Shown piece by piece: positions 6,626-63,821 of a DNA stretch of 64,000 nt. The DNA comes from Terriglobia bacterium (GTDB taxonomy: Bacteria > Acidobacteriota > UBA6911), in assembly GCA_963824985.1 (NCBI GenBank), contig CAWGRQ010000024.1, positions 264,822 through 328,821 of the forward strand, written 5' to 3'. Under the pieces are notes generated by a model. That model saw only the letters and a list, made by a program, of their open reading frames with translations. It made no database searches and had not been told where the DNA came from. Made by a program: the position numbers and the translations under genes. The stretch's first letter is position 1. Every line of letters starts with the position of its first letter.

Positions 6626-6660
6626 AAGATCTTCGTCCCTCAGCAAATCTTACCAGAGTT

Positions 6661-6819
6661 CCGGTGACCGGCGCCATAACCTCGAAATTCCGTCACAGAA
6701 GCGGCGGTTTTGCGCCGCATTCCCAAGGGTGCGGCAAATCGCTTGCATCGTCATCTCCAGTCAACCGCTCCGTCATGGCTTGCCATGCCTGAATTTAGAG
6801 GTTATGGCGCCGGTCACCG
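6661..6819. repeat. 158-bp element bounded by 30-bp near-perfect inverted repeats (MITE-like or regulatory palindrome)
   Basis: Left arm ccggtgaccggcgccataacctcgaaattc (6661-6690). Right arm gaatttagaggttatggcgccggtcaccga (6791-6820) is its reverse complement with 2 mismatches. Core contains an inner hairpin gcggcg-gttttg-cgccgc. Confidence 0.6.
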
Positions 6820-6952
6820 AAATCCCTTCTTTGTCATTGACAAGTATTCTAGTATCTGCTGAATTACTAAAACATCGGGTGGCAGAAAAGCGGACTGTCA
6901 AATCGAACTGTCAGGTAATGCTGCGTGTCCGAGCCCCGCAATCACAAGAGAT

Positions 6953-17482: not shown

Positions 17483-17711
17483 TCCACGGGCCTTTGGCGC
17501 ACCCGCGTGCATGAAAAGGTTACGCCTCTCTGGTTGGCAATTGTCGGGATCGGAATTGCAATCGCTATCGGCTTTTTCGAACTGCGAAGGCCGATTGGGA
17601 CCGCAATTGCGATTCCGACCCCGAAGGTTGTCGCCTTTTCCGCTATTTTCGGAGCAGCTCCTCATGCGCCATGGCGCACCCTGTGACGCATGAAAATATT
17701 AAGCTCCCATC

Positions 17712-30034: not shown

Positions 30035-30088
30035 GTAAATCCGTTTCTGCCTCAGTTCTTCAGCCGGGTCCGCTGCCCGGAAAAGAGA
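30035..30088 (+). other. Relic of a second tssM 3' end (48-bp paralogous patch)
   Basis: aatccgtttctgcctcagttcttcagccgggtccgctgcccggaaaag matches 29795-29842 (codons NPFLPQFFSRVRCPEK of tssM). There are 5 differences, all at synonymous third positions. Confidence 0.6.
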
Positions 30089-30096
30089 GCATGGCG

Positions 30097-30147
30097 CCTG
30101 GTTATACTGTCCACACACCACTATGGTATTGGGGCAGTATAACCAGG
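30097..30147. repeat. IR-bounded small repeat element, copy 1 (CCTGGTTATACTGTCC...GGGCAGTATAACCAGG)
   Basis: Terminal inverted repeats of 16 nt (1 mismatch). Same termini as elements at 41752-41793 and 59663-59742. Confidence 0.6.
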
Positions 30148-30242
30148 TAACCGTTCACACGCCGGAGAGTTCCTGCCTCTTCCCGCGCCCGATCCGGCAG
30201 CCGTTATGCGGGTTTTCCGCCGGCTGCTGCGTGACCGTCTAC

Positions 30243-30291
30243 GCCGGGCCAAACTCCTCTCCGAGAGCTTCATGCACAATCTTCTCTCGTG
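30243..30291 (+). repeat. 49-bp dispersed repeat, copy A (inverted partner at 63614-63662)
   Basis: ccgggccaaactcctctccgagagcttcatgcacaatcttctctcgtgg matches the reverse complement of 63614-63662 at 45 of 49 positions. Confidence 0.6.
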
Positions 30292-30459
30292 GATTGAAAC
30301 AGCGACGCTTCGCCGGTGAGGGGCAGTCCCGGGCTGATGAAGGACAGCACCTGGTTTTTACATGATTCCAGATGATTTCAACCCCACCTGGTGCTATTCT
30401 GCGCACTCCAAGAAAAGGTGATTCACAATCTATATTTCACGTGCCTCCTCGGAGACGGT

Positions 30460-33551: not shown

Positions 33552-33593
33552 CAAAGCCTGGAAAGCCTGGACAAAGCCTGGAAATCCTGGACA
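33552..33593. repeat. Left terminus of IS/REPtron-like element: tandem (A)AAGCCTGGA units ending in 16-bp IR CCTGGAAATCCTGGAC (33577-33592)
   Basis: Tandem roughly 10-bp units caaagcctgg / aaagcctgga / aaatcctgga. The perfect reverse complement gtccaggatttccagg sits at 35091-35106. Confidence 0.6.
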
Positions 33594-33665
33594 CCCATTT
33601 TTTGTAATTTTTTCTTGGCACTTTCCATGAGTTCACCAGTTAGATAGTATTGAAAGAGGTGAACC

Positions 33666-34816
33666 ATGGCTTTGCCGCGCAGCAAATACGTCCAGGAAGG
33701 ACAAGAAGGGGTGTATCACTGCTTCAGCCGGTGCGTCCGCCGGGCTTTCCTGTACGGATTCGATCCGCTCACACGCCGGGACTTCTCCCACCGCAAAGCA
33801 TGGCTGGTAGACAGGTTGCGGCTATCTCGCGGCCATCTTCGCCATCGAAGTCTGTGCCTACGCCATTATGGAGAATCACTATCACACTATTCTGCGTACT
33901 CGCCCCGATATCGTCGCCCTGTGGTCCGATCGGGAAGTGGCAATCCGCTGGCTGACACTCTTCCCCCGACATCGCAACCTGAGCGGCACCCCAATTCCGC
34001 CTGCCGAGAAAGAAATCTGCGCTCTGGCGGATTGTCCGGAACGTATCGCAGAGCTGCGCCGACGCTTGTCGAGCCTGAGTTGGTTCATGGGCCGGCTGAA
34101 CGAATTCATCGCTCGGGCGGCAAACAAAGAGGATCGGGTCAAGGGCCGGTTCTGGGAATCGCGGTTCAAATGCCAGGCGCTGCTCGACGAAGCGGCCATC
34201 GCCGCATGCATGGTCTATGTGGACCTGAATCCGATCCGGGCCGGTACTGGCTGCAACTCCGGAGGAAAGCGACTTCACCAGCATCCAGGAACGGATCCGT
34301 GCCTGGCAGAAAGAGACGATGACGACAGCCTCCGCCTCCAGCGAGACGGCCCAAGACATGCAGTCTGGCTCGGTCAGTAAAGTTACGCAATACCGCGAAA
34401 TACGGCCGAAATTTCGAACCTCATTCCCGACCCCATTTCCGACTGCGGCGAATTCCCTTGATGCTACAGCCCATCCCGCCCGCTGGCTTTGTCCCATTCA
34501 ATCAGACTCCGAACGGCGCGGGATTCTGCAGATGACTGCAGCCGAGTATTTCGATCTGGTGGACAAGTCGGGACGGATGATGCGGTCGGACAAACGGGGA
34601 GCCATCGATGCCGATCTGGCGCCCATCCTGCTGCGGATCGGCGCCAATCCGGACGCGTGGCTTGATACCGTCACCCGCTTCGGTTCCAGGTTCCGTCTCG
34701 CTGCCGGGCTGCTTGCCAATCTGCGCAATTTTGCAGATCAGCTCGGCAGGCGCTGGCTCAAAGGCGCAGCAGCGGCTCGAGCCGCCTTCGCGTCATCGCC
34801 GCCGCAATTGGCCTGA
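33666..34816 (+). pseudogene. COG1943 / IS200-IS605-like Y1 (HUH) transposase-like gene (RAYT-like), two frameshifts
   Basis: HuH-type motif VCAYAIMENHYHTIL, then FWESRFKCQALLDEAAIAACMVYVDLNPIRAG. Reading shifts near 33830 and 34245 across the frames of ORFs 33666, 33868 and 34319. Low-GC promoter and gaaagaggtg SD upstream. Confidence 0.55.
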
Positions 34817-35090
34817 CCTCTTACGCGCCCAGCAGCCAATCCTCTGCAGACCCGATGCTATCTTCTGACCGCATCGATCCCTTCCAGCAGCATTTGGTAT
34901 TTTCCTACCCGTGACCGTCCTATTGCCCTGATTCCTGCCGACTTGTTTCACCCAACGGTCAGATTCGTCTCCTCCATCCCAGATCGGCGCTTCCCCACGG
35001 AAACTCAGATTCGGATTGGATACAAATGATGAATGCTGGGTGTTTAAGATTGTTGATTTATTTGAGATTTGCAAATTACGAATGGTGGGT

Positions 35091-35133
35091 GTCCAGGATT
35101 TCCAGGATTTTTCCAGGATTTTTCTTCCAGGAG
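35091..35133. repeat. Right terminus of IS/REPtron-like element: gtccaggatttccagg (35091-35106) plus tandem ttccaggattttt units
   Basis: Perfect 16-bp inverted partner of 33577-33592. The tandem copies are a mirror image of the left end. Confidence 0.6.
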
Positions 35134-36731: not shown

Positions 36732-37067
36732 CATCGAAAATCTCTGCCCTGACCCGTGCTTCGGAGCACTCAATCTTGCCGGTACCGCTCTCGAGGACCG
36801 ACACATGACATCAGAGCCTGCTCCGAAAATAGGCTCTGCACTCACCGACAATCGGGGTCGGCATCGGAATCGGGGTCGCTATCGATATCGAAACCGGGAC
36901 CGACCCCGATTCCGATAGCGATCCCGACGGCATCTCCCCTGCTGCCAGTCTTTTTCATGCGTCACCGGGTGCGCCACGGCGCATGAGGAGCTGCTGCTCC
37001 AAGGAAAGTGTGGCGCGGGGGCCTGTTCCCCCGCGCCACTGCGTCTGAGCATAGTACAGCAATTCCG

Positions 37068-41733: not shown

Positions 41734-41751
41734 TCAATGCAGGAAAGGGCG

Positions 41752-41793
41752 CCTGGTTATAGTGTCCCCGCGTTCAGGGACAGCATAACCAGG
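41752..41793. repeat. IR-bounded small repeat element, copy 2 (CCTGGTTATAGTGTCCCC...GGGACAGCATAACCAGG)
   Basis: Same termini as 30097-30147 and 59663-59742, with 2 mismatches. Confidence 0.55.
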
Positions 41794-41848
41794 CACGCAT
41801 CGCTACTTCAAGGTCACGTTCAGATACACCGAATATCGCCCGTACGTT

Positions 41849-49913: not shown

Positions 49914-52097
49914 TTACTTTGCCTTGCTCCCCTTCAGATACTCATCCAGCCACGCCCTCTCGTTCAGCATCCGGTGAATCTGGTTCCAATGTCCCGCGAT
50001 TCCGTGCGGCTGTCCCGCGTACTGGATGATCTTCGCCGGAACGCCGTTCTTTTTGAGCGCGAAGTACATCTGCTCCCCCTCCTCGAACGGCACGCGGTGA
50101 TCCACCTCGCCATGGATGAAGAGGGTTGCAGCCTTCACCCGGTCGGCATACGTGAGGGGGGATTGGCGGATCATAATTTCTCTCGCCTTCGGGTCCCAGG
50201 GCGTGCCATAGAACTCCGTTTCCTTGGTGCGGGCGATGTCGGCGAGGCCGTAGTCGCTGATCCAGTTGGAAATCCCGGCGCCCGGGCAGGCCGCCGCAAA
50301 CCGGTCGGGGTATTGCGTGATCAGCCAGTTGCTCATGAACCCCCCGTAGGAGTGCCCGATCGTTGCCACCCGGCCGGCGTTAACCGGGAAGTTCTTGATG
50401 ACATAATCCACCCCCGCCATCACGTCCTGCCCATCCTTCGTACCCCAGGCGCCCCACGTAGCCCAGAGGAACTTCTCGCCGTAGCCCGTGGAACTCCGGA
50501 AATTCACCTGGAGAACGAAGTATCCGTTGGCGGCAAAATACTGACCCTTGAAATCGAAGCCGTACCCCACCGCGCTGTGCGGTCCGCCGTGATTGCTGAC
50601 GATTAGCGGAAACGGCCCACCGCCGGGGCGATAGCCATACGGATAGAGAAGCCACCCTTCGACCGGAGTACCGTCGGCGCTCTTGAAGTTCAACCGCTCG
50701 GCGGTGCTGAGTGCAACCTCGGAACGGAAGGCATCGTAAATGTGCGTGAGTTGCCGTTCCCCGGAACCATCGATGTTGGCGAAGGAAATCTCCGAAGGCG
50801 CCTCGAAGCGACCGACGGTGAATGCCATTTTTGTCATCGCGCGATTAAAGGAAAGCCCGCCGATGCGCCGCTCCCCCCTGGTGATCTGTTCAACGGCTCC
50901 GCCCGTCGGCAAAATCCGGAAGAGATGCGTGGTGCCGCCGATGCCCCCGGTAAAATAAACATACTTGCTGTCGGGACTCCATTGGGCGCCTGCGGGCAGA
51001 TAGTCCCAGTCTGCAGTCAGATTCTTTCCCTCGCCGCCGCCCGCCGGCATCAGGATGAGATCCACCGGCCCGCCGTGATTCAGCTTTTTTGCAATGACCA
51101 TGTCGAGCGCAAAGCCGCGCGTGGCCAGAATATACCGGCCGTCGGGCGAATAGCGCGCGTTGGAATAGCTGTAATCGGGATTCGAGGTCAGGCGCCGGGC
51201 CGCGCCGTCGAGGGATACGGTCCAGATGTCGTTGCGGCCGTAAGAACGTTCCTGGCGATACGCGGAGTCGGCGGTAAACAGGATCGCCGTGCCATCATGG
51301 TTCCATTGCACGCCGCCCGGCCGAAATCCCAGCCGGGTGAGCTGCCGTTCCGCGCTGCCGTCCGCCGCGGCGATGAAAATCTCCTGCGGAGGCGTCAGCT
51401 GGGGATCCACGGGGTTGGGCACCGGCCAGGCCGCGCCATCGCGCTTGTATTCGAGCCAGTCGATCACAGATCCCTTGAATCGTTCCTCGTGGCGTTTTGC
51501 GAATTCGGATTCATAGACCCGCTCAGTCTTTGGAGGCGGCGTGTTCCGTACGGTCGCGATCCACTTGCCGTCGGGACTGGGCAGCGGCGCACCCCCCCCT
51601 CTCCCCCCCGCCCCTCTCCCCCCGCTTCTGCCTCCACCCGCGGGAGCGGCAGTGGCTTCAGGGGCCTTCCCCGGCATCCCCGGATCGTAGAGATACGTGC
51701 GATTGCCGGCGCTGAAACGGAGGAGGCCTTCGCCGGTCCATTGAGGAGCGCTCGCATCCACCCCCTCGGCACTCACGCGTCGCTCGGGCGACGAGGCATC
51801 GGCACCGACGAGCCAGACTTCACTCTGGTTCCCGTTCGTTTCCTCCACCCGTGTGCCGACCGTAAACGCGACCCAACGGCCGTCGGGGGAAAGCTCGGGA
51901 GACCCAACCGTTTTGATACGGTAATAGTCCTCGATTGAGAGCGGGCGCCCGCCCGCCCGCGCCGCCGCGGATGCCTGCCCGCGCTCCACAGGCAGGGTGG
52001 AAGAGAGCGCCAGCACAGCGCCGATCGCAGCCGGCAACAGAGCGACAAGGGTAAAATGCGTGCGCGGGACTCGAAATCTGCGGTTGATATCAGACAT
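49914..52097 (-). CDS. S9-family serine peptidase with TolB-like propeller (intact paralog)
   Basis: Start MSDINRRF with AGGAAT SD. Propeller SPDGRWVAFTV. Catalytic GHSYGGFMSNW. IHGEVDHRVP. Gly/Arg-rich insert. 727 aa. Confidence 0.75.
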   Translation of the reverse strand: MSDINRRFRVPRTHFTLVALLPAAIGAVLALSSTLPVERGQASAAARAGGRPLSIEDYYRIKTVGSPELSPDGRWVAFTVGTRVEETNGNQSEVWLVGADASSPERRVSAEGVDASAPQWTGEGLLRFSAGNRTYLYDPGMPGKAPEATAAPAGGGRSGGRGAGGRGGGAPLPSPDGKWIATVRNTPPPKTERVYESEFAKRHEERFKGSVIDWLEYKRDGAAWPVPNPVDPQLTPPQEIFIAAADGSAERQLTRLGFRPGGVQWNHDGTAILFTADSAYRQERSYGRNDIWTVSLDGAARRLTSNPDYSYSNARYSPDGRYILATRGFALDMVIAKKLNHGGPVDLILMPAGGGEGKNLTADWDYLPAGAQWSPDSKYVYFTGGIGGTTHLFRILPTGGAVEQITRGERRIGGLSFNRAMTKMAFTVGRFEAPSEISFANIDGSGERQLTHIYDAFRSEVALSTAERLNFKSADGTPVEGWLLYPYGYRPGGGPFPLIVSNHGGPHSAVGYGFDFKGQYFAANGYFVLQVNFRSSTGYGEKFLWATWGAWGTKDGQDVMAGVDYVIKNFPVNAGRVATIGHSYGGFMSNWLITQYPDRFAAACPGAGISNWISDYGLADIARTKETEFYGTPWDPKAREIMIRQSPLTYADRVKAATLFIHGEVDHRVPFEEGEQMYFALKKNGVPAKIIQYAGQPHGIAGHWNQIHRMLNERAWLDEYLKGSKAK

Positions 52098-52255
52098 GGG
52101 TCGGATTCCTTTCAGTACAAATTTTCCTTCTGCGTTCGGCGCGTTTCGCGGCCCGGCGCGCGGCCGCGATGAACGGCCGGACAAATCGTTTTCCGACAGG
52201 ATCGCGTATTCTGCCAAGGGAATCGCATTCGGCTTCAATCGAATGTGGCCCCATT

Positions 52256-52667
52256 TTACACGATCGTTCGCCTGTCCCCGCCGACAATTGTGCGCATCTC
52301 GTCTGCCTGAAGCTCGGCAACGGTGAATCCCGAGATTTTGCAATCATTGAACCGACGACAAGAGTCGGCGGATTTTTTGAGCCAGCGATCGACGGGATTC
52401 CAGCCGATTCCCTTTACTCGAGCAATTGCGGATTTGTTCAGGCCTTCGACGCTGAGGCTGGCGACCTCGTCAAAGGTTGTGCGACGATGTTGGAGCCGAT
52501 AGTAGGCCGTGCCCACATTCAAGCAGAAGGTCTTCCCGCAAATCCGGCACCCGTATCGGCGACGCTTTTCCCCAAGTGGTTTTGTAGAAGCCGTGGCGGA
52601 TGAGGTTTCCGGCACAGGCTTTCCCCGACAGTGGGCATTGCGGGTTCGTACATCTGAGACTCTTCAT
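52256..52667 (-). mobile_element. IS1595/ISXO2-like transposase N-terminal remnant (zinc ribbon plus HTH), frameshifted and truncated
   Basis: CTNPQCPLSGKACAGNLIRHGFYKTTWGK / RRRYGCRICGKTFCLNVGTAYYRLQHRRTTFDEVASLSVEGLNKSAIARVKGIGWNPVDRWLKK fits the IS1595 zinc-ribbon/HTH N-terminus. No DDE domain follows. Adjacent roughly 450-bp low-GC noncoding stretch. Confidence 0.5.
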
Positions 52668-53130: not shown

Positions 53131-55179
53131 ATGCCTCCTGGAAATGCAATCTGTCATTACTTACTCCTACGGTTGCGCCGACTGGCGCTTGTTGGCTTTG
53201 TCCTGTGCGTCTTCGGAACAGGGAGTTTTGCGTTTCAGGCGGACTCCGGCCCCAAGGAGATCGGCGCCAACATTCGAACGTACTGGCCAAGAAGCCGATT
53301 CACATTGAGAGCGGACTCCAATCTAGTAGAAGTGGGCGTGGTTGTCCGGGACAATCGTGGCCGCGCCATCGGCGGTCTCGGCAAGGACGACTTCGAGATC
53401 GAAGACGCTGGCAGGAGGCAGGACATCACGCTGTTTTCCGTCGAAACATCCACCCCAAGGCCCAAAACGGTGCCCGAGACCCTAAAGACGGTTGCAAACA
53501 GGGCGGTCGAGAGCCCGAGATACCAGCTCCGGTACGTGGCCCTGCTCTTCGACGATTACAGCATGCCTTTTGCCCACCAGTTCTATGTAAAGGAGGCGGC
53601 CAAGCGTTTCGTCAGGGGGGGCTTGTCGCAGGGCGATCGCGTCGGACTGTTTACCACATCAGGAAAACAGATTGTGCCCTTTACCGACGACGGTGCGAAA
53701 CTCGCAGCGGCTATCGACGGATACAACTCCTTCCCTCACGCTCCCGACGGCGGCATCTGCCCCAAACTGACGCCTTATGACGCTTATGTAATCGCAAATA
53801 GAATCGACTTCGAGACCCTGGCCGTCAAGTCGGAGGAACGCGCAGTTTGCTCCAGGGGAAGATCGCCACTTGCTGGTGGTCGTCGTCCTGGGCAAGTCGG
53901 CCACTGGCCTTTTCCGGGGACAGACCCGGTGATGATGCAGGCCGAGGCTATGTGGACACAGATTCGCGATACTTCTATGCGAGCGCTGGAAACGGTGGGA
54001 AGACTCGTGGACTACATGGCGCAGTTGCCAGGAGGGAGAATGGTGCTGCTGGCGTCCTCCGGTTTCCTGGTGGGAACGCTTGAACGGGAGCAACAGGATG
54101 TTATCAACCGCGCGCTCCGGGCCGAGGTAGTCATCAATGCGATCGACGCCAAAGGGCTCTACGCCGAGGATCCGCCCGAGAAGTCTATGGGCTTCAACTT
54201 AGGTTCTTTGATTCGCATGGTAAGGGCCTGTCAATGAATAACGTTTGCACTTTGGCGCGAGCGCCGGGCGGGCAGATGCAAGGCGCCGCGACGCAGGCGA
54301 TGCGGTGCCATCGTCGAGGAGCGGCAACGCAGCAGATGCCCGCCCGCCGCCGCGCCCCTTCGGGCTGCGGCCCGCAGGCCCGCTGGCTTCGTTGCTCGCT
54401 CCTTACATACAACCCGGTATGCTCGTCGCTCGCGCCTCGCCAGCGGGCCTGGGGGCCGGCAGCAAAGTGTAAACGTTATTCATTGACAGGCCCTAAGTTT
54501 GGGGACCAAGGATAAGGACCTCAGCAACGAGATCATGGCGACTCTGACGATGAGCACGGGTGGCCTGTTCTTTCGCAACAACAACGATCTCGATCTCGGC
54601 TTTCGTGAGCTGGGCATGGTTCCCGAAGTTTCGTATCTCCTGGGCTTCTCGCCCAAAGGCGATTTCAATGGAAAGTATCACCGCCTCAAAGTGCGCGTGA
54701 AATCGCGAAATTCGTATTTGATCCAGGCACGACCAGGCTACTGGGCGGTTCCTGCCGAAGCACAGGAATCGGGAGAACGGGCTGTCGACCGCGAGGTGAT
54801 GGGATCTGATACGCGGAAGGAGCTGCCCGCGTCTTTCGCGGCGGCACATTCCAAGGCGGAAAATGGAGGCCCGGCTCTTGACGTCGTGATACATCTCGAT
54901 GTCCGGGAGTTTCACTTCCTCGAAAAGGACGGCGCACGCACCCAGATGATACTTTTCATTGCGGCGTTATTTGACAGTAATGGGCAGTTTGTGGCCGGTA
55001 AGGAAGCCGAAATTCGATTTGCGCTGAAGGAGCCCACTTACAATGGCATGATCGAAACCGGGTTGGACCTGTCGCTTACCTTGCAGGCGCCTCCGGGTGC
55101 ATATCGCCTGCGCAGTGTGGCTCAGGATGCCATCGAAGGCAAGATCGTATCCTCGACACAGGCAGTCGAGATCCGGTAA
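53131..55179 (+). pseudogene. VWFA-related Acidobacterial domain protein, interrupted by a MITE insertion
   Basis: N-terminal part (53131-54237) and C-terminal part (54499-55179) belong to one family. Deleting 54224-54496 (element plus one TAA) joins them in frame: ...SLIRMVSLGTKDKDLSNEIMATLTMSTGG... Confidence 0.7.
54224..54493. mobile_element. 270-bp MITE with 31-bp terminal inverted repeats and 3-bp TAA target-site duplication
   Basis: Left TIR gggcctgtcaatgaataacgtttgcactttg. The reverse complement of the right TIR differs at 1 position. TAA at 54221-54223 and 54494-54496. GC-rich structured interior. A TAA duplication is consistent with an IS5-family-derived MITE. Confidence 0.75.
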
Positions 55180-55637
55180 ACGAACGCCACCTGGATCGAG
55201 ATGTTCGGGCCAGCCGTGGTTTGAATTGATGGCCGGCGTGTCATTCCCGGCGTCGATTTTCAGTTCCTGGACGAGGCGGCCGCCCTTGGCCTCAACGCGG
55301 AGCGTCAACGGATCCGGCTCGATGCGAACCGTCAGGCTCCCGCACCGCACTCTCCGGCTTCCTGCAAGGGTACGCAGCGCGTCGGCCCGCCTCCCCCATG
55401 TGTCCCGGACCAGGGATCCGCTTGGGGGGACCGGCAGCGCCCGCCCGTTCGCAATAGGGAGGAGGGAAATCCGGACGTTTGCGGGGCCGACCGCAGTCAG
55501 GAGGATTTCCGCCTGCCTGCCGGCGATCCGGATTGGAGTTTCCTGGGCGCGGCTGACCGGCGCCGCGAAAAGCACGCTCGAACCGACCGCGGCCGCGCCC
55601 TTCAAGACTTCCCTGCGACTAAGCGGTTTTCTCATGA
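55180..55637 (-). other. Possible gene remnant with Tat-type signal (MRKPLSRREVLKGAAAVGSSVLFAAPVSRAQ)
   Basis: The ORF continues antisense into the VWFA gene, so only about 150 aa can be genuine. Twin-arginine motif SRREVLKG. Confidence 0.3.
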
Positions 55638-55714
55638 TATCGCCCGCGTTCCTTTGAGGGCCAGCGGCCTGTGCCTCGTCAAAATTCGATAATGGGGCGA
55701 ATTGGCGCCCGGCG

Positions 55715-55807
55715 GCATCAGGATGAGATCCACCGGCCCGCCGTGATTCAGCTTTTTTGCAATGACCATGTCGAGCGCAAAGCCGCGCGTGGCCAGAATA
55801 TACCGTC
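55715..55807. repeat. Exact 93-bp duplicate of an internal coding segment of the S9 peptidase (51046-51138)
   Basis: ggcatcaggatgagatccaccggcccgccgtgattcagcttttttgcaatgaccatgtcgagcgcaaagccgcgcgtggccagaatataccg occurs identically in the coding region of the S9 gene and here in non-coding sequence. Confidence 0.7.
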
Positions 55808-55954
55808 AAGGGGGTAGTGTACGGCAAGCCGGGCAGCGGCAAGACGCTGCCATTAGGTGTTCGTGTGCTCAGATGAGTGAAAACCGGATGGGAGCGCGCC
55901 CTGGTGGTCCGAGTACGTGTTCCCCATCGATTGGAACATTGATCTGGAGCGATT

Positions 55955-58900
55955 ATGTCCGGCATTTCCCGATATTCAGCGTTTTGCGTCGCGGCAGCAA
56001 TTTCAGCCTCATTCCTTTTCCCATGGGTGCAGGAGCCACAGCCGCGGGCTTCCGGCGATCCGGTGGCCCGATTCGTTCAAACCGCGCAGGGGGTGATTGC
56101 GACTACCGGCGATCCGGGTCCAAAGCCTGAGTATCCTGCCGACCAGCTCATCATCAAAATCAGGGTCGCCAGCGTGCGCAACCGGCTCCGTGCGGGGACC
56201 CGGCCGCTTTCCCTGGGCAGCCCCTTCGATGCCCTGCTCAAGAAATATTCGGTACAGGAGGTGGCCGCCGTATTTCCGGCGCCCGAACCCATCGTATCCC
56301 GTTCGCTGACGGGCCCCAGGCTCCTGCAATCCTTCCAGTCTTTGAACCTGGCCAACGTGTACCGCCTGCAGACCGAGGCGGCAATCGACGTGATGGCCGC
56401 CGCAGCGGAGTTTCAATCCTTGCCCGAGGTGGAATATGCCGAGCCCAACTATATCTACAGAATCCAGGGCAGACAAATGACCCATTCCTGACATCCCAGG
56501 GTTCCTGGGGGCAACCTTACCCGGACCTGTGGGGCCTGCACCGGATATCCGCACCCGCCGCGTGGGACATAGGCACCGGTGCAGGGGTGGTCGTCGCCGT
56601 CATCGATACGGGTTGTGATGTCACCCACCCGGATTTGTCGGTCAACGTCTGGACCAACGCCGGGGAGATACCCGGGAATGGGATCGACGACGACCACAAT
56701 GGCTTTGTCGATGACGTGACAGGCTGGGATTTTTTCAATCACGACCCGGACGTCAGCGATACCGGCGGGCACGGAACCCATGTCGCAGGGACTATCGCCG
56801 CAGCCGGCAACAACGGCCTCGGTATCGTCGGAGTCGCCTGGGAAGCCAAGGTGATGGCGGTTAAGGGGCTGGGGGATCAGGGCAGCGGGAACAGCGATGA
56901 CTTGGCCAAAGCCGTCCTATACGCCGCCGGCAACGGCGCCAAGATCATCAATATGAGCTGGGGCGGTTCGGGTTTCTCCCAAACCATGGAAGATGCGTTC
57001 ATTTTCGCCAACTCGCTGAACGTTTCCCTGGTCGCGGCCGCGGGCAACAACAATATGGAGGCTTCCTCCTTTTTCCCCGCCAATTCAAGGCACGTCATCA
57101 CGGTGGGCTCCTCGGATCACAACGATCTCCGATCCGACTTTTCCAATTTCAGCTTTTCCGTTGACGTCGTTGCCCCGGGGGGCGACAGCAGCGACAGCTC
57201 CTCCGACCAGATCTTCAACAACATTCTCAGCCTGCTTTCATCGGCCATTACCGGGCAGTTGGCCAACCCGATGTTCCTGGTTGGGGAGAATTATCTCAGG
57301 GCGCGCGGCACGAGCATGGCAGCCCCGCATGTCGCGGGCCTGGCGGCGGGTGGCGGGTTCTCCAGCTACGCGATTCAGTACCAGGACTCGTCGTCGACCG
57401 AGTGGCGCAGCGACGGCATCACGCTTGCGGACGGCGGTGCCAGGAAGGTCAGGGACGGGATCATGGGGACCTGGAATACCGCGAACATCGACCGCGCCAG
57501 CCTGTTCAGGCTCCGGCTGGTGGTGAAGCGCGCCGGCCTGTCCGACGTCGTGAAAGAAACCCGCATTACGATCGATCCGGACCTGCACTCGGGGTGGCCA
57601 CAGCGAATTCCTCCGCTGAATTATCTCATCGGCCGGCTGGTCTACCTGGAAAACGTGACCGCGGCGGACATCGACAGGGATGGGTAGGCCGAAATCCCAG
57701 TCGGCTACGGATTTGACATCAGGGTGTACCGCAGCGACGGCACGATGGCGGCGGGCTGGCCGATTCAGATGGGCCCCTCGCAATTAACCCTCGGCGTAGG
57801 ATCCGCGGCGTTCGTGGATCTGGATGGCGACGGCCGCCGGGAGATGATCGTCGGCTCGGGGATGCCCCTATCGGGTCCCGAGGCTATGATGCCCTTCTGC
57901 CTGCACGCGTTTCGCAGCGACGGGCAGGAAGTGGCGGGTTTCCCCAAGCCGGCTACCGGCTGCGATGCATCCCTGGGCAGTACGCCCGCCGTGATGGATA
58001 TCGACGGTGACGGGCGGCTGGAGATCGCCTGGATCAACATGAGTGGGGATTTATTCCTGTGGGACACGGCAACAGCCGCGCGGATCGAAAGCACGGATTG
58101 GCCCATGTACCAGCATGATCCGGGACGAAGCGGAGCCGCCCCGCACCTGGCGCACAAGACCCTGGCAATCTCCGCTGGAGGCGCCGGAACGGCCGGGACG
58201 TTCGGCAGCATCGGGCCGGTTCAGGCAGGCTATGCGGCGGCAAGCGTCGACTCCGGGACCACACCTTACGGGACCGCAGTCTTCAGCGTGATGCAGGACA
58301 ATGTCGTGATCAGCGAGGCGGCCGTTCCCGCCAGTTTCCCCACGCGGGCGGCAGCCGTTTTTATCGAATATCGCACGGGTGTCGCCGGCATGCCCGGGCG
58401 CACCGATGCCGGTTCCCTCGACGTCTACACCGGCGTTGCCCTCGTCAACCGCGGCTTGGTCCCCGCGCGCGTGACGTACACGCTGCGCAACCAGGCCGGG
58501 GCCGTCGTCGCGGCCGGCCACGGCAGCCTTGGCGCCGGGGCTCAGTTTGCCAGGTTCATCGATCAGCTGAAAGAGGTGGCACCCGATTTCAACATGCCGG
58601 TCGACTTCCCGAGGGCAATCCAGTTCGGGTCCCTCGAAGTGGCCAGCGACCAGCTCCTGTCGGTCCTTGCGCTCCGGCTGACGGTGAACCAGCGCCGCGA
58701 GACGCTGCTCACGAGCACGCCCGTCGCTGACCTCTCGAAGCCGTCGGCTGCACTGAGGCTCTATTTCCCGCAGCTTGTGGACGGAGGCGGCTATTTGACC
58801 ACCCTTTTCCTGCTCAACACCTCGGGCACCGAGGAGACCGGCAGGTTCGAGCTGTACGACGATAACGGAGCGACGCTGCCGGTGAGCCAGGCCGGGGCGG

Positions 58901-59588: not shown

Positions 59589-59662
59589 CGGGGGTGCCGT
59601 ATCTGTATAATCCAGTTTTCGGATTAGAACAGCTCGCATGGACTAGCCCATTAGACTCGGCA

Positions 59663-59742
59663 CCTGGTTATACTGTCCCCTTTGCATCTCGAACAATATC
59701 AACGAGATAGAATGGGGACAGTATGGGGACAGTATAACCAGG
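59663..59742. repeat. IR-bounded small repeat element, copy 3 (perfect 18-bp TIRs CCTGGTTATACTGTCCCC / GGGGACAGTATAACCAGG)
   Basis: 80-bp element. Internal hairpin atctcg...cgagat. Tandem ggggacagtat duplication at the right end. Confidence 0.65.
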
Positions 59743-60059
59743 TACCAAGCTTTCACCATTGCTGATGAAGGCAATTGCCGGGCGGATTCGTCACGTTTTC
59801 CCCATCAGAAGGGGCCAATAATGCCAGCGAGCCTTCGTCCTTTTATCGCCGGCCGGTTATGTACGGGTAGCCGACTATTTGTCCAAGTGGATCGAATGCG
59901 TAAATGGGATTGCTGGTGACAACTTTCCTTGCAGCGCAGCAGATCGTGCCTAAAGCCTAAAACGCATGACGGCGCGCATTTATCGAGCGCATGTCCGATA
60001 AAAGCCGTTTTTATTCTTTTGCCTCAGTCGATAAATAACTTTACAATGTAAAGTCATCC

Positions 60060-63613: not shown

Positions 63614-63662
63614 CGGATGTACCCACGAGAGTAGATTGTGCATGAAGCTCGCGGAGAGGCGT
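63614..63662 (-). repeat. 49-bp dispersed repeat, copy B (inverted partner of 30243-30291)
   Basis: See copy A. 45 of 49 identical in reverse-complement orientation. Confidence 0.6.
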
Positions 63663-63821
63663 TCGGCCCGGTGCAATCGTTGTCTGTCAAACATCCAGAA
63701 AATAGAAACTTCTGAACCTCACACCCCTTTTGGCCATCCAATGATATGCAATTTCCGTAGTATCCTGGTGCGCAGCCATCATGTCAGATATTGTGGCGGC
63801 TTTGCCGCCGTGGAGCCCGAT

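Follow-up and report, generated by a model that had tools for sequence, protein, structure and literature searches.

A 270-bp MITE with a 3-bp TAA duplication interrupting a VWFA-family gene in Acidobacteriota

MITEs are present in 56.5% of prokaryotic genomes (PMC11602168). One of them, Chunjie of Geobacter uraniireducens, occurs in variants of 178-235 bp, and one of its copies is located in a phosphate-uptake operon (PMC10969869). The element described here resembles Chunjie, Correia/NEMIS, RUP and QMITE2 in being small, non-coding and multicopy and in carrying terminal inverted repeats (TIRs) and a target-site duplication (TSD). Size variants derived by internal deletion and occasional insertions into genes or operons, as known for prokaryotic MITEs such as Chunjie, are found here as well. 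Unlike the known prokaryotic MITEs, the element is unrelated in sequence to Rfam, plasmid and viral-contig entries, it is accompanied by a 3-bp TWA duplication, and its modular interior of two hairpins has a very high GC content. The host phylum, Acidobacteriota, goes unmentioned in a 2024 review on prokaryotic MITEs, and the family to which the element belongs seems to be previously undescribed.

Two further groups of elements are comparable with respect to target and termini. For PIF/Harbinger elements, 3-bp TSDs of TTA/TAA are a hallmark, and the DDE transposases that they encode are relatives of those of bacterial IS5 elements (PMC2213677). The Tourist-type MITE mPing has the terminus GGCCAGTCACAATGG, prefers TAA/TTA and is excised precisely (PMC4561436). 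Both the 3-bp TAA/TTA duplication and the strong preference for TAA/TTA are common to Tourist/mPing and the family studied here, and the mPing terminus corresponds to GGGCCTGTCAATGAA of the latter at approximately 11 of 15 positions by eye, which is a lead and not evidence of homology. Precise excision, as documented for mPing, would restore the interrupted gene in the present case. The differences from Tourist/mPing are the bacterial host, the length of the TIR (31 bp compared to 14-25 bp) and the PIF-like transposase/ORF1 partner, which was not found here. Among bacterial insertion sequences, the IS5 subgroups IS1031, IS427 and ISL2 generate duplications of 2-4 bp at T-N-A- or CTAG-like targets and have termini starting with GG. 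A short T-N-A-centred duplication and the GG start are also seen here, with a C...G context, but in the collections searched, no IS1031, IS427 or ISL2 element sharing the TIRs was encountered.

The element and the interrupted gene are listed in Table 1. A single copy was found in the window, by which the whole 64-kb stretch of DNA analysed is meant. In a previous sequence-only reading, a MITE of 270 bp had been noted, with 31-bp TIRs perfect except for one base and direct TAA flanks, and these features were confirmed. The left TIR and the reverse-complemented right TIR are identical at 30/31 positions, the sole difference being position 24 (G left, A right), and TAA adjoins both ends; the range originally noted (54221-54496) comprises the element and both TAA copies. 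No match to the TIR 31-mer at up to 3 mismatches was obtained in 100 shuffles of the window. The GC content of the MITE is about 68%, compared to about 58% in the surrounding DNA. Its 208-bp interior consists of two GC-rich hairpins and contains no ORF for a transposase, as had been stated.

Table 1. Positions of the MITE, its repeats and hairpin modules, the target duplication and the two parts of the interrupted gene in the window
Feature	Position	Strand	Remark
VWFA-related (TIGR03436) gene, 5' part, codons 1-364	53131..54223	+	ORF as called extends to 54237
Left TSD copy, TAA	54221..54223	.	overlaps host codons GTA/AGT (Val364-Ser365)
MITE	54224..54493	+	270 bp; without transposase coding capacity
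Left TIR	54224..54254	+	31 bp, G at position 24; sequence GGGCCTGTCAATGAATAACGTTTGCACTTTG
Internal hairpin module A, imperfect palindrome	54261..54350	+	missing in 207-bp and ~130-bp variants
Internal hairpin module B, imperfect palindrome	54368..54458	+	missing in 168-200-bp variants
Right TIR	54463..54493	-	31 bp, A at position 24
Right TSD copy, TAA	54494..54496	.	adjoins right TIR
VWFA-related (TIGR03436) gene, 3' part, codons 365-591	54497..55179	+	separate ORF called from TTG 54499

In the predicted single-strand fold, which has a free energy of -185.5 kcal/mol (z = -12.5 compared to shuffles), the TIRs form a stem around hairpins A and B, both of them long and imperfect. Compensatory changes were seen in 3 of the 97 predicted hairpin pairs (3 in module B), and selection on the hairpin structure is not claimed, because these pairs are too few. 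An Rfam search with the MITE returned no match, and no promoter or terminator consensus was found within it.

The gene interrupted by the MITE had been recognised as encoding a VWFA-related acidobacterial domain, which is borne out by the restored product. The upstream ORF (53131-54237) encodes 368 amino acids and ends with ...SLIRMVRACQ*, where RACQ and the stop codon are derived from the MITE, while the downstream ORF (54499-55179) encodes 226 amino acids. In-silico deletion of 54224-54496, i.e. of the MITE and one TAA, fuses both ORFs in frame, as predicted, and gives a single ORF of 591 amino acids (...SLIRMV-SLGTKDKDLSNEIMATL...), the restored junction of which reads ...SLIRMV-SLGTKDKDLS.... 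The restored protein matches the NCBIfam model TIGR03436 (acidobact_VWFA) with 195.5 bits (1.6e-57; cut-off 81.25). A single match takes in profile positions 2-323 (of 324) and residues 58-448 of the protein and extends across the junction at 364/365. A database search gave 447 TIGR03436 relatives at E<=1e-20. The full-length relatives of the restored protein have 585-625 amino acids and are 60-74% identical to it. With respect to the TIGR03436 proteins, the restored 591-aa product matches the whole model and has full-length homologues of 65-74% identity; in the source genome, the gene is broken inside the domain, at residue 364/365.

Thirteen intact full-length homologues show no gap at the junction when aligned with the restored protein, and the residues directly behind it, L366 and G367, are invariant. 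The presence of the 270 bp as coding sequence in relatives, which had been named as the refuting observation, is seen neither in these 13 homologues nor in the uninterrupted protein P0122 (591 amino acids), which is encoded on another contig (325,724 bp) and belongs to the same 90%-identity cluster. P0122 is 94% identical to the restored protein with 0 gaps and reads SLIRMVSLGT over the site, i.e. it represents an empty site at the protein level only. In the public record, the halves of the gene are annotated as two proteins on the source contig (381,554 bp), P0011 (368 amino acids), identical to the 5' product described above, and P0121 (226 amino acids). Apart from the MITE, no second lesion was detected in the gene; both halves are open, and conservation extends along the full 591 codons. 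The 270-bp segment has thus been inserted into a gene that is intact apart from it, and the VWFA gene appears to have lost its function in this way.

Searching with the TIR in relatives, as had been suggested, yielded copies in 12 metagenome-assembled genomes (MAGs) but no parent IS. In the species-representative genome collection, the outer 20-mer of the TIR was found in >112 stretches of these 12 MAGs, all of which are assigned to Acidobacteriota/Terriglobia and originate from soil, peat and groundwater; among Acidobacteriota of soil and peat, the family occurs in abundance. With a TIR end defined as a match to the 31-mer at <=5 mismatches, 144 ends were found, in which positions 1-23 and 25-31 are nearly invariant. 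In an nhmmer search, E=1.4e-94 was obtained for the window element. Complete small copies in MAGs numbered 29, with sizes from 93 to 305 bp; 12 of the 29 correspond to the window MITE over the full length, with identities of 89-95%. The copies fall into modular size classes: copies of approximately 270 bp contain A and B, those of 207 bp only B, those of 168-200 bp only A and those of 93-132 bp neither of them. Micro-remnants of 36 bp and 31 bp are also present. Position 24 is A at one end and G at the other in 29/30 complete copies, the exception being L041 with G and C. Because of this asymmetry, the mismatch between the TIRs is a family trait and not decay. Relative to the interior, both A/G polarities occur, which look like two sub-lineages.

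TTA or TAA adjoins 134 of the 144 ends (TTA 68, TAA 66), and the base beyond the triplet (position -4) is C in 74/144 ends. Together, the TWA flanks and the preferred outer C make the target look like C-TWA-G. In all 23 complete copies flanked by TWA on both sides, the middle base is identical left and right (15 TAA/TAA, 8 TTA/TTA), from which it follows that the triplet is the duplicated target, a true 3-bp TSD, and not element sequence. The intact TSD reported for the window copy (TAA/TAA) agrees with a concordance of 23/23 in the family. Of the 64 ends with a TAA flank, 14 terminate an ORF of >=150 codons; among the TAA triplets of these loci as a whole, the proportion is 4.9% (P=2e-6). The median spanning ORF has 201 codons at family copies but 375 codons at random TWA sites. 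The family is hence under-represented in the middle of genes and over-represented on TAA stop codons; there, insertion regenerates the stop codon and is presumably harmless. The window copy, located 364 codons into a gene of 591 codons and inside a conserved domain, is atypical for the family in this respect, as would be anticipated if it were young or had escaped purging.

Taken together, these data describe a genuine MITE insertion that probably inactivates the gene, a clear if commonplace case of a widespread type of mobile element. As a whole, the explanation that a MITE mobilised in trans inserted into the VWFA gene is very probably correct. It regards the element as a non-autonomous DNA transposon, the TIRs of which (~31 bp) would be recognised by a DDE transposase acting in trans. 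A cut with a 3-nt stagger at a T-A/T-A target, with C-TWA-G preferred, and repair of the stagger would have duplicated the triplet. In the window, insertion took place into the TAA spanning the Val364/Ser365 codons inside the TIGR03436 domain of the 591-codon gene. The upstream reading frame now stops four codons into the MITE, the downstream 227 codons are without a start, and the very stable 270-nt hairpin probably also stops read-through.

The mid-domain position, atypical for the family, and the undamaged gene halves together fit a comparatively young insertion, and the insertion might be regarded as evolutionarily recent; this applies only in a relative sense, because the nearest uninterrupted orthologue is merely 94% identical. 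One alternative, which we consider somewhat less likely than not, is that the window copy is a fossil, i.e. an old insertion without a working transposase in a pseudogene tolerated among many VWFA paralogues. It would account for the single copy in 64 kb, for the lack of a partner IS anywhere in the data, for the identity of just 95% to the nearest copy in another genome and of 94% to the nearest empty-site orthologue, and it is compatible with the large size of the TIGR03436 family (447 matches, see above). It is at odds with the gene halves, which are open and conserved over 591 codons with no second lesion, with the intact TIRs and TSD, and with the presence of copies elsewhere that are 98.6-99.5% identical to each other. 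The latter are 207-bp copies at four unrelated loci in MAG CAZXSV01, which contains at least 85 TIR ends in 69 loci, mostly at contig ends. Contigs ending at the repeat are an effect of a high-copy, near-identical repeat on short-read assembly. The near-identical copies in CAZXSV01 imply that the family amplified recently somewhere. The designation of the window element as 'active-looking' can accordingly be retained at the family level, owing to the near-identical copies in another MAG, while the window, with its single copy, gives no sign of activity in the source genome.

As for the enzyme mobilising the MITE in trans, an IS5/PIF-like DDE transposase would, given a MITE, probably be the likeliest agent. 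The IS5 or PIF-Harbinger type is deduced from the 3-bp TAA/TTA duplication and the mPing-like terminus. The original, putative assignment to IS5-derived MITEs is compatible with the TWA target and duplication. Mobilisation by a transposase of another family (IS30-, IS3-, IS982- or IS630-type, or an undescribed one) is considered unlikely. Several bacterial IS families can yield duplications of 2-4 bp, which would be in favour of such an enzyme, as would the outcome of the searches, in which no transposase was found. This is opposed by the sequence-specific TWA target, by the duplication of exactly 3 bp in 23/23 copies and by the similarity of the terminus GGGCCTGTCAATG to that of mPing (GGCCAGTCACAATGG). 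In particular, the TTA/TTA cases are not explicable by an IS630/Tc1-type duplication of TA, and the termini of the MITE do not begin with TG...CA as in the IS3 type. A more far-reaching version of the IS5/PIF-like reading is that the family is a bacterial counterpart of the plant Tourist/mPing system, present in high copy number and amplifying in Acidobacteriota, with TAA/TTA TSDs and an mPing-like terminus, mobilised, as no IS with the same ends was detected, by a PIF/Harbinger-like or a solo (domesticated or TIR-less) transposase, and with copies persisting preferentially on TAA stop codons together with a hairpin directly 3' of the gene; we would regard this as a long shot.

The window, 115 related loci, the filtered metagenome search and the viral and plasmid searches did not yield the cognate autonomous IS, which the sequence-only reading had expected elsewhere. 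ORFs inward of 18 unpaired internal TIRs were those of ordinary genes, with no transposase partner among them, and the sequence inward of the TIRs was a MITE-type L or R interior in 128/128 classifiable ends. No credible candidate emerged when long TIR pairs were sought with relaxed criteria in the window and the 115 related loci, TWA-flanked 16-nt TIR pairs 600-3000 bp apart were absent from the same set (0), and an all-against-all BLAST of the loci revealed no common repeat of >=450 bp. The scan of viral contigs gave 0 matches to the family, and a distant BLAST of the MITE against plasmids resulted in chance GC-rich matches only. In the metagenome scan excluding MITE-type ends, 3 matches were obtained, namely a remnant of 36 bp, a TIR on its own and a MITE of 166 bp, but no IS; the pattern excluded MITE ends by means of A/G at position 33, so that an IS sharing the subterminal sequence of the MITE would escape it, as would one confined to unbinned contigs or to the rest of the source genome. 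An IS1-like remnant in the window (52256-52667; NF033558, 2.6e-9) was dismissed as parent, since it is of another family and its ends are unrelated. The window also harbors a frameshifted gene (33666-34816) that resembles IS200/RAYT transposases by eye and is flanked by 49-nt inverted repeats (33562-35121). Neither of these two remnants is related to the MITE in ends or chemistry. As a mobiliser of the MITE, this RAYT-like pseudogene at 33.6-35.1 kb was rejected, since HUH enzymes, to our knowledge, do not produce such TSDs.

Spread of a REP/BIME-like palindrome by a RAYT (HUH, IS200-like) transposase, in place of a DDE-type MITE, would be suggested by the shape of the element, a long imperfect palindrome with a very stable fold (z = -12.5), and by the degraded RAYT-like gene and short palindromic repeats in the window. 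The repeats beside this gene are unrelated in sequence to the element. REPs are 20-40 bp long and have neither long TIRs nor a target duplication (PMC3733652). The element described here is 270 bp long, with 31-bp TIRs that are nearly invariant in 144 ends and TSDs concordant in 23/23 copies, and REP/RAYT-type spread, which is very improbable, is effectively refuted by the TIRs and the concordant duplication. That the 270 bp belong natively to the gene, arose during assembly or form an intervening sequence could be argued solely from the annotation of two ORFs in the public record; these readings are already refuted by the homologues without the 270 bp and by the recurrence of the element, TSDs included, at unrelated loci of 12 assemblies independent of one another.

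The MITE insertion offers several points of modest interest, namely the resemblance of target and terminus to those of mPing although the host is a bacterium, the lack of a detectable partner and the pattern of landing on stop codons. With regard to annotation, the 'genes' of 368 and 226 amino acids in the public record are the halves of one VWFA-family gene, and the locus forms a clean pair of filled and empty site with its 94%-identical orthologue. As a probe, the 31-bp TIR lends itself to the search for the transposase and for strain-level markers. If the family were indeed a counterpart of Tourist/mPing, the large 3' hairpin of the copies on stop codons could act as a terminator or as a stabiliser of mRNA. 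To the little-studied mobilome of Acidobacteriota, the finding adds a high-copy MITE family of soil and peat members, the amplification of which appears to be so recent that MAG assemblies break at its copies and genes are inactivated by them.

MITE-family copies that sit exactly on the in-frame TAA ending a long ORF are 4.4-fold enriched (14/64 versus 4.9%, P=2e-6). Examples among the loci fetched from other Acidobacteriota MAGs are L105, L063, L025, L100, L081 and L036. At such sites the stop codon is remade by the target-site duplication, and a large hairpin follows immediately after the gene.

The two TIRs differ at position 24, with A at one end and G at the other, in 29 of 30 complete copies, a set made up of the window copy (54247 and 54470) and all complete copies in L006 to L112. 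The lone exception, L041, carries G and C. Relative to the MITE interior, both polarities occur; A...G is the majority form and G...A is found in the window copy, L016, L032, L093 and others. These polarities could stem from two sub-lineages, or else the TIRs may have been inverted or have exchanged sequence with each other.

The size extremes of the family are listed in the table. Both micro-remnants (L113 and L012) consist of positions 1-23 of the left TIR fused to the final 8-13 nt of the right TIR and are extreme internal deletions or products of abortive excision. The hairpin A module of the L080 copy contains about 125 bp of foreign sequence with lower GC, which was either captured or brought in by a nested insertion. 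The MAG CAZXSV01 contributes 69 fetched loci, L003 and L010 among them. The majority of its contigs break off 29-50 nt inside a TIR and some have a TIR at each end; the MITE family seems to be among the chief reasons why this assembly is fragmented.

Features of the window and size extremes of the MITE family
Feature	Location	Strand	Details
MITE-like inverted repeats	6659-6822		37 nt, 89% complementary, 90 nt between
Inverted pair	17653-17696 vs 36952-36995		44 nt, 95% complementarity, 19 kb separation
Second short palindromic repeat family	30085-30150, 41748-41795, 59656-59754		GGCGCCTGGTTATACTGTCC ... GGGGACAGTATAACCAGG
Inverted pair	30244-30292 vs 63623-63671		49 nt, 92%
IS-like unit	33562-35121		about 1.56 kb, with 49-nt inverted repeats (86% complementary) at its ends
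S9-peptidase gene	49914-52343	-	repeated fragment encodes MVIAKKLNHGGPVDLILMP
Direct repeat	51038-51137 and 55706-55805		100 nt, 99% identity
IS1-family transposase remnant	52256-52667	-	NF033558, E=2.6e-9, below cut-off
MITE micro-remnant	L113 2150-2185		36 bp, TTA/TTA flanks still present
MITE micro-remnant	L012 565-595		31 bp
MITE-family copy	L080 164-468		305 bp

Between the S9-peptidase gene and the MITE-split VWFA gene, an IS1-family transposase is represented by its zinc-finger N-terminus, spread over two frameshifted and overlapping ORFs. This is a degraded IS remnant without relation to the MITE. The second copy of the S9-peptidase fragment lies directly downstream of the VWFA gene, so that IS1 remnant and VWFA gene are bracketed by the direct repeat. 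No family match was obtained for 55200-55965, a region that may be rearranged.

Further repeats are present in the window. The 164-bp structure formed by the 37-nt inverted repeats is MITE-like and differs in sequence family from the MITE at 54224-54493. The 44-nt inverted pair is a further dispersed repeat. The IS-like unit holds frameshifted ORFs (NHYHTILRT...RFWESRFKCQALLDE...YVDLNPIRAG) that, judged by eye, resemble an IS200/RAYT-type (HUH) transposase and represent a candidate pseudogene. The short palindromic repeats, present at three or more sites, and the 49-nt inverted pair resemble REP or MITE elements and may be tied to this RAYT-like gene.
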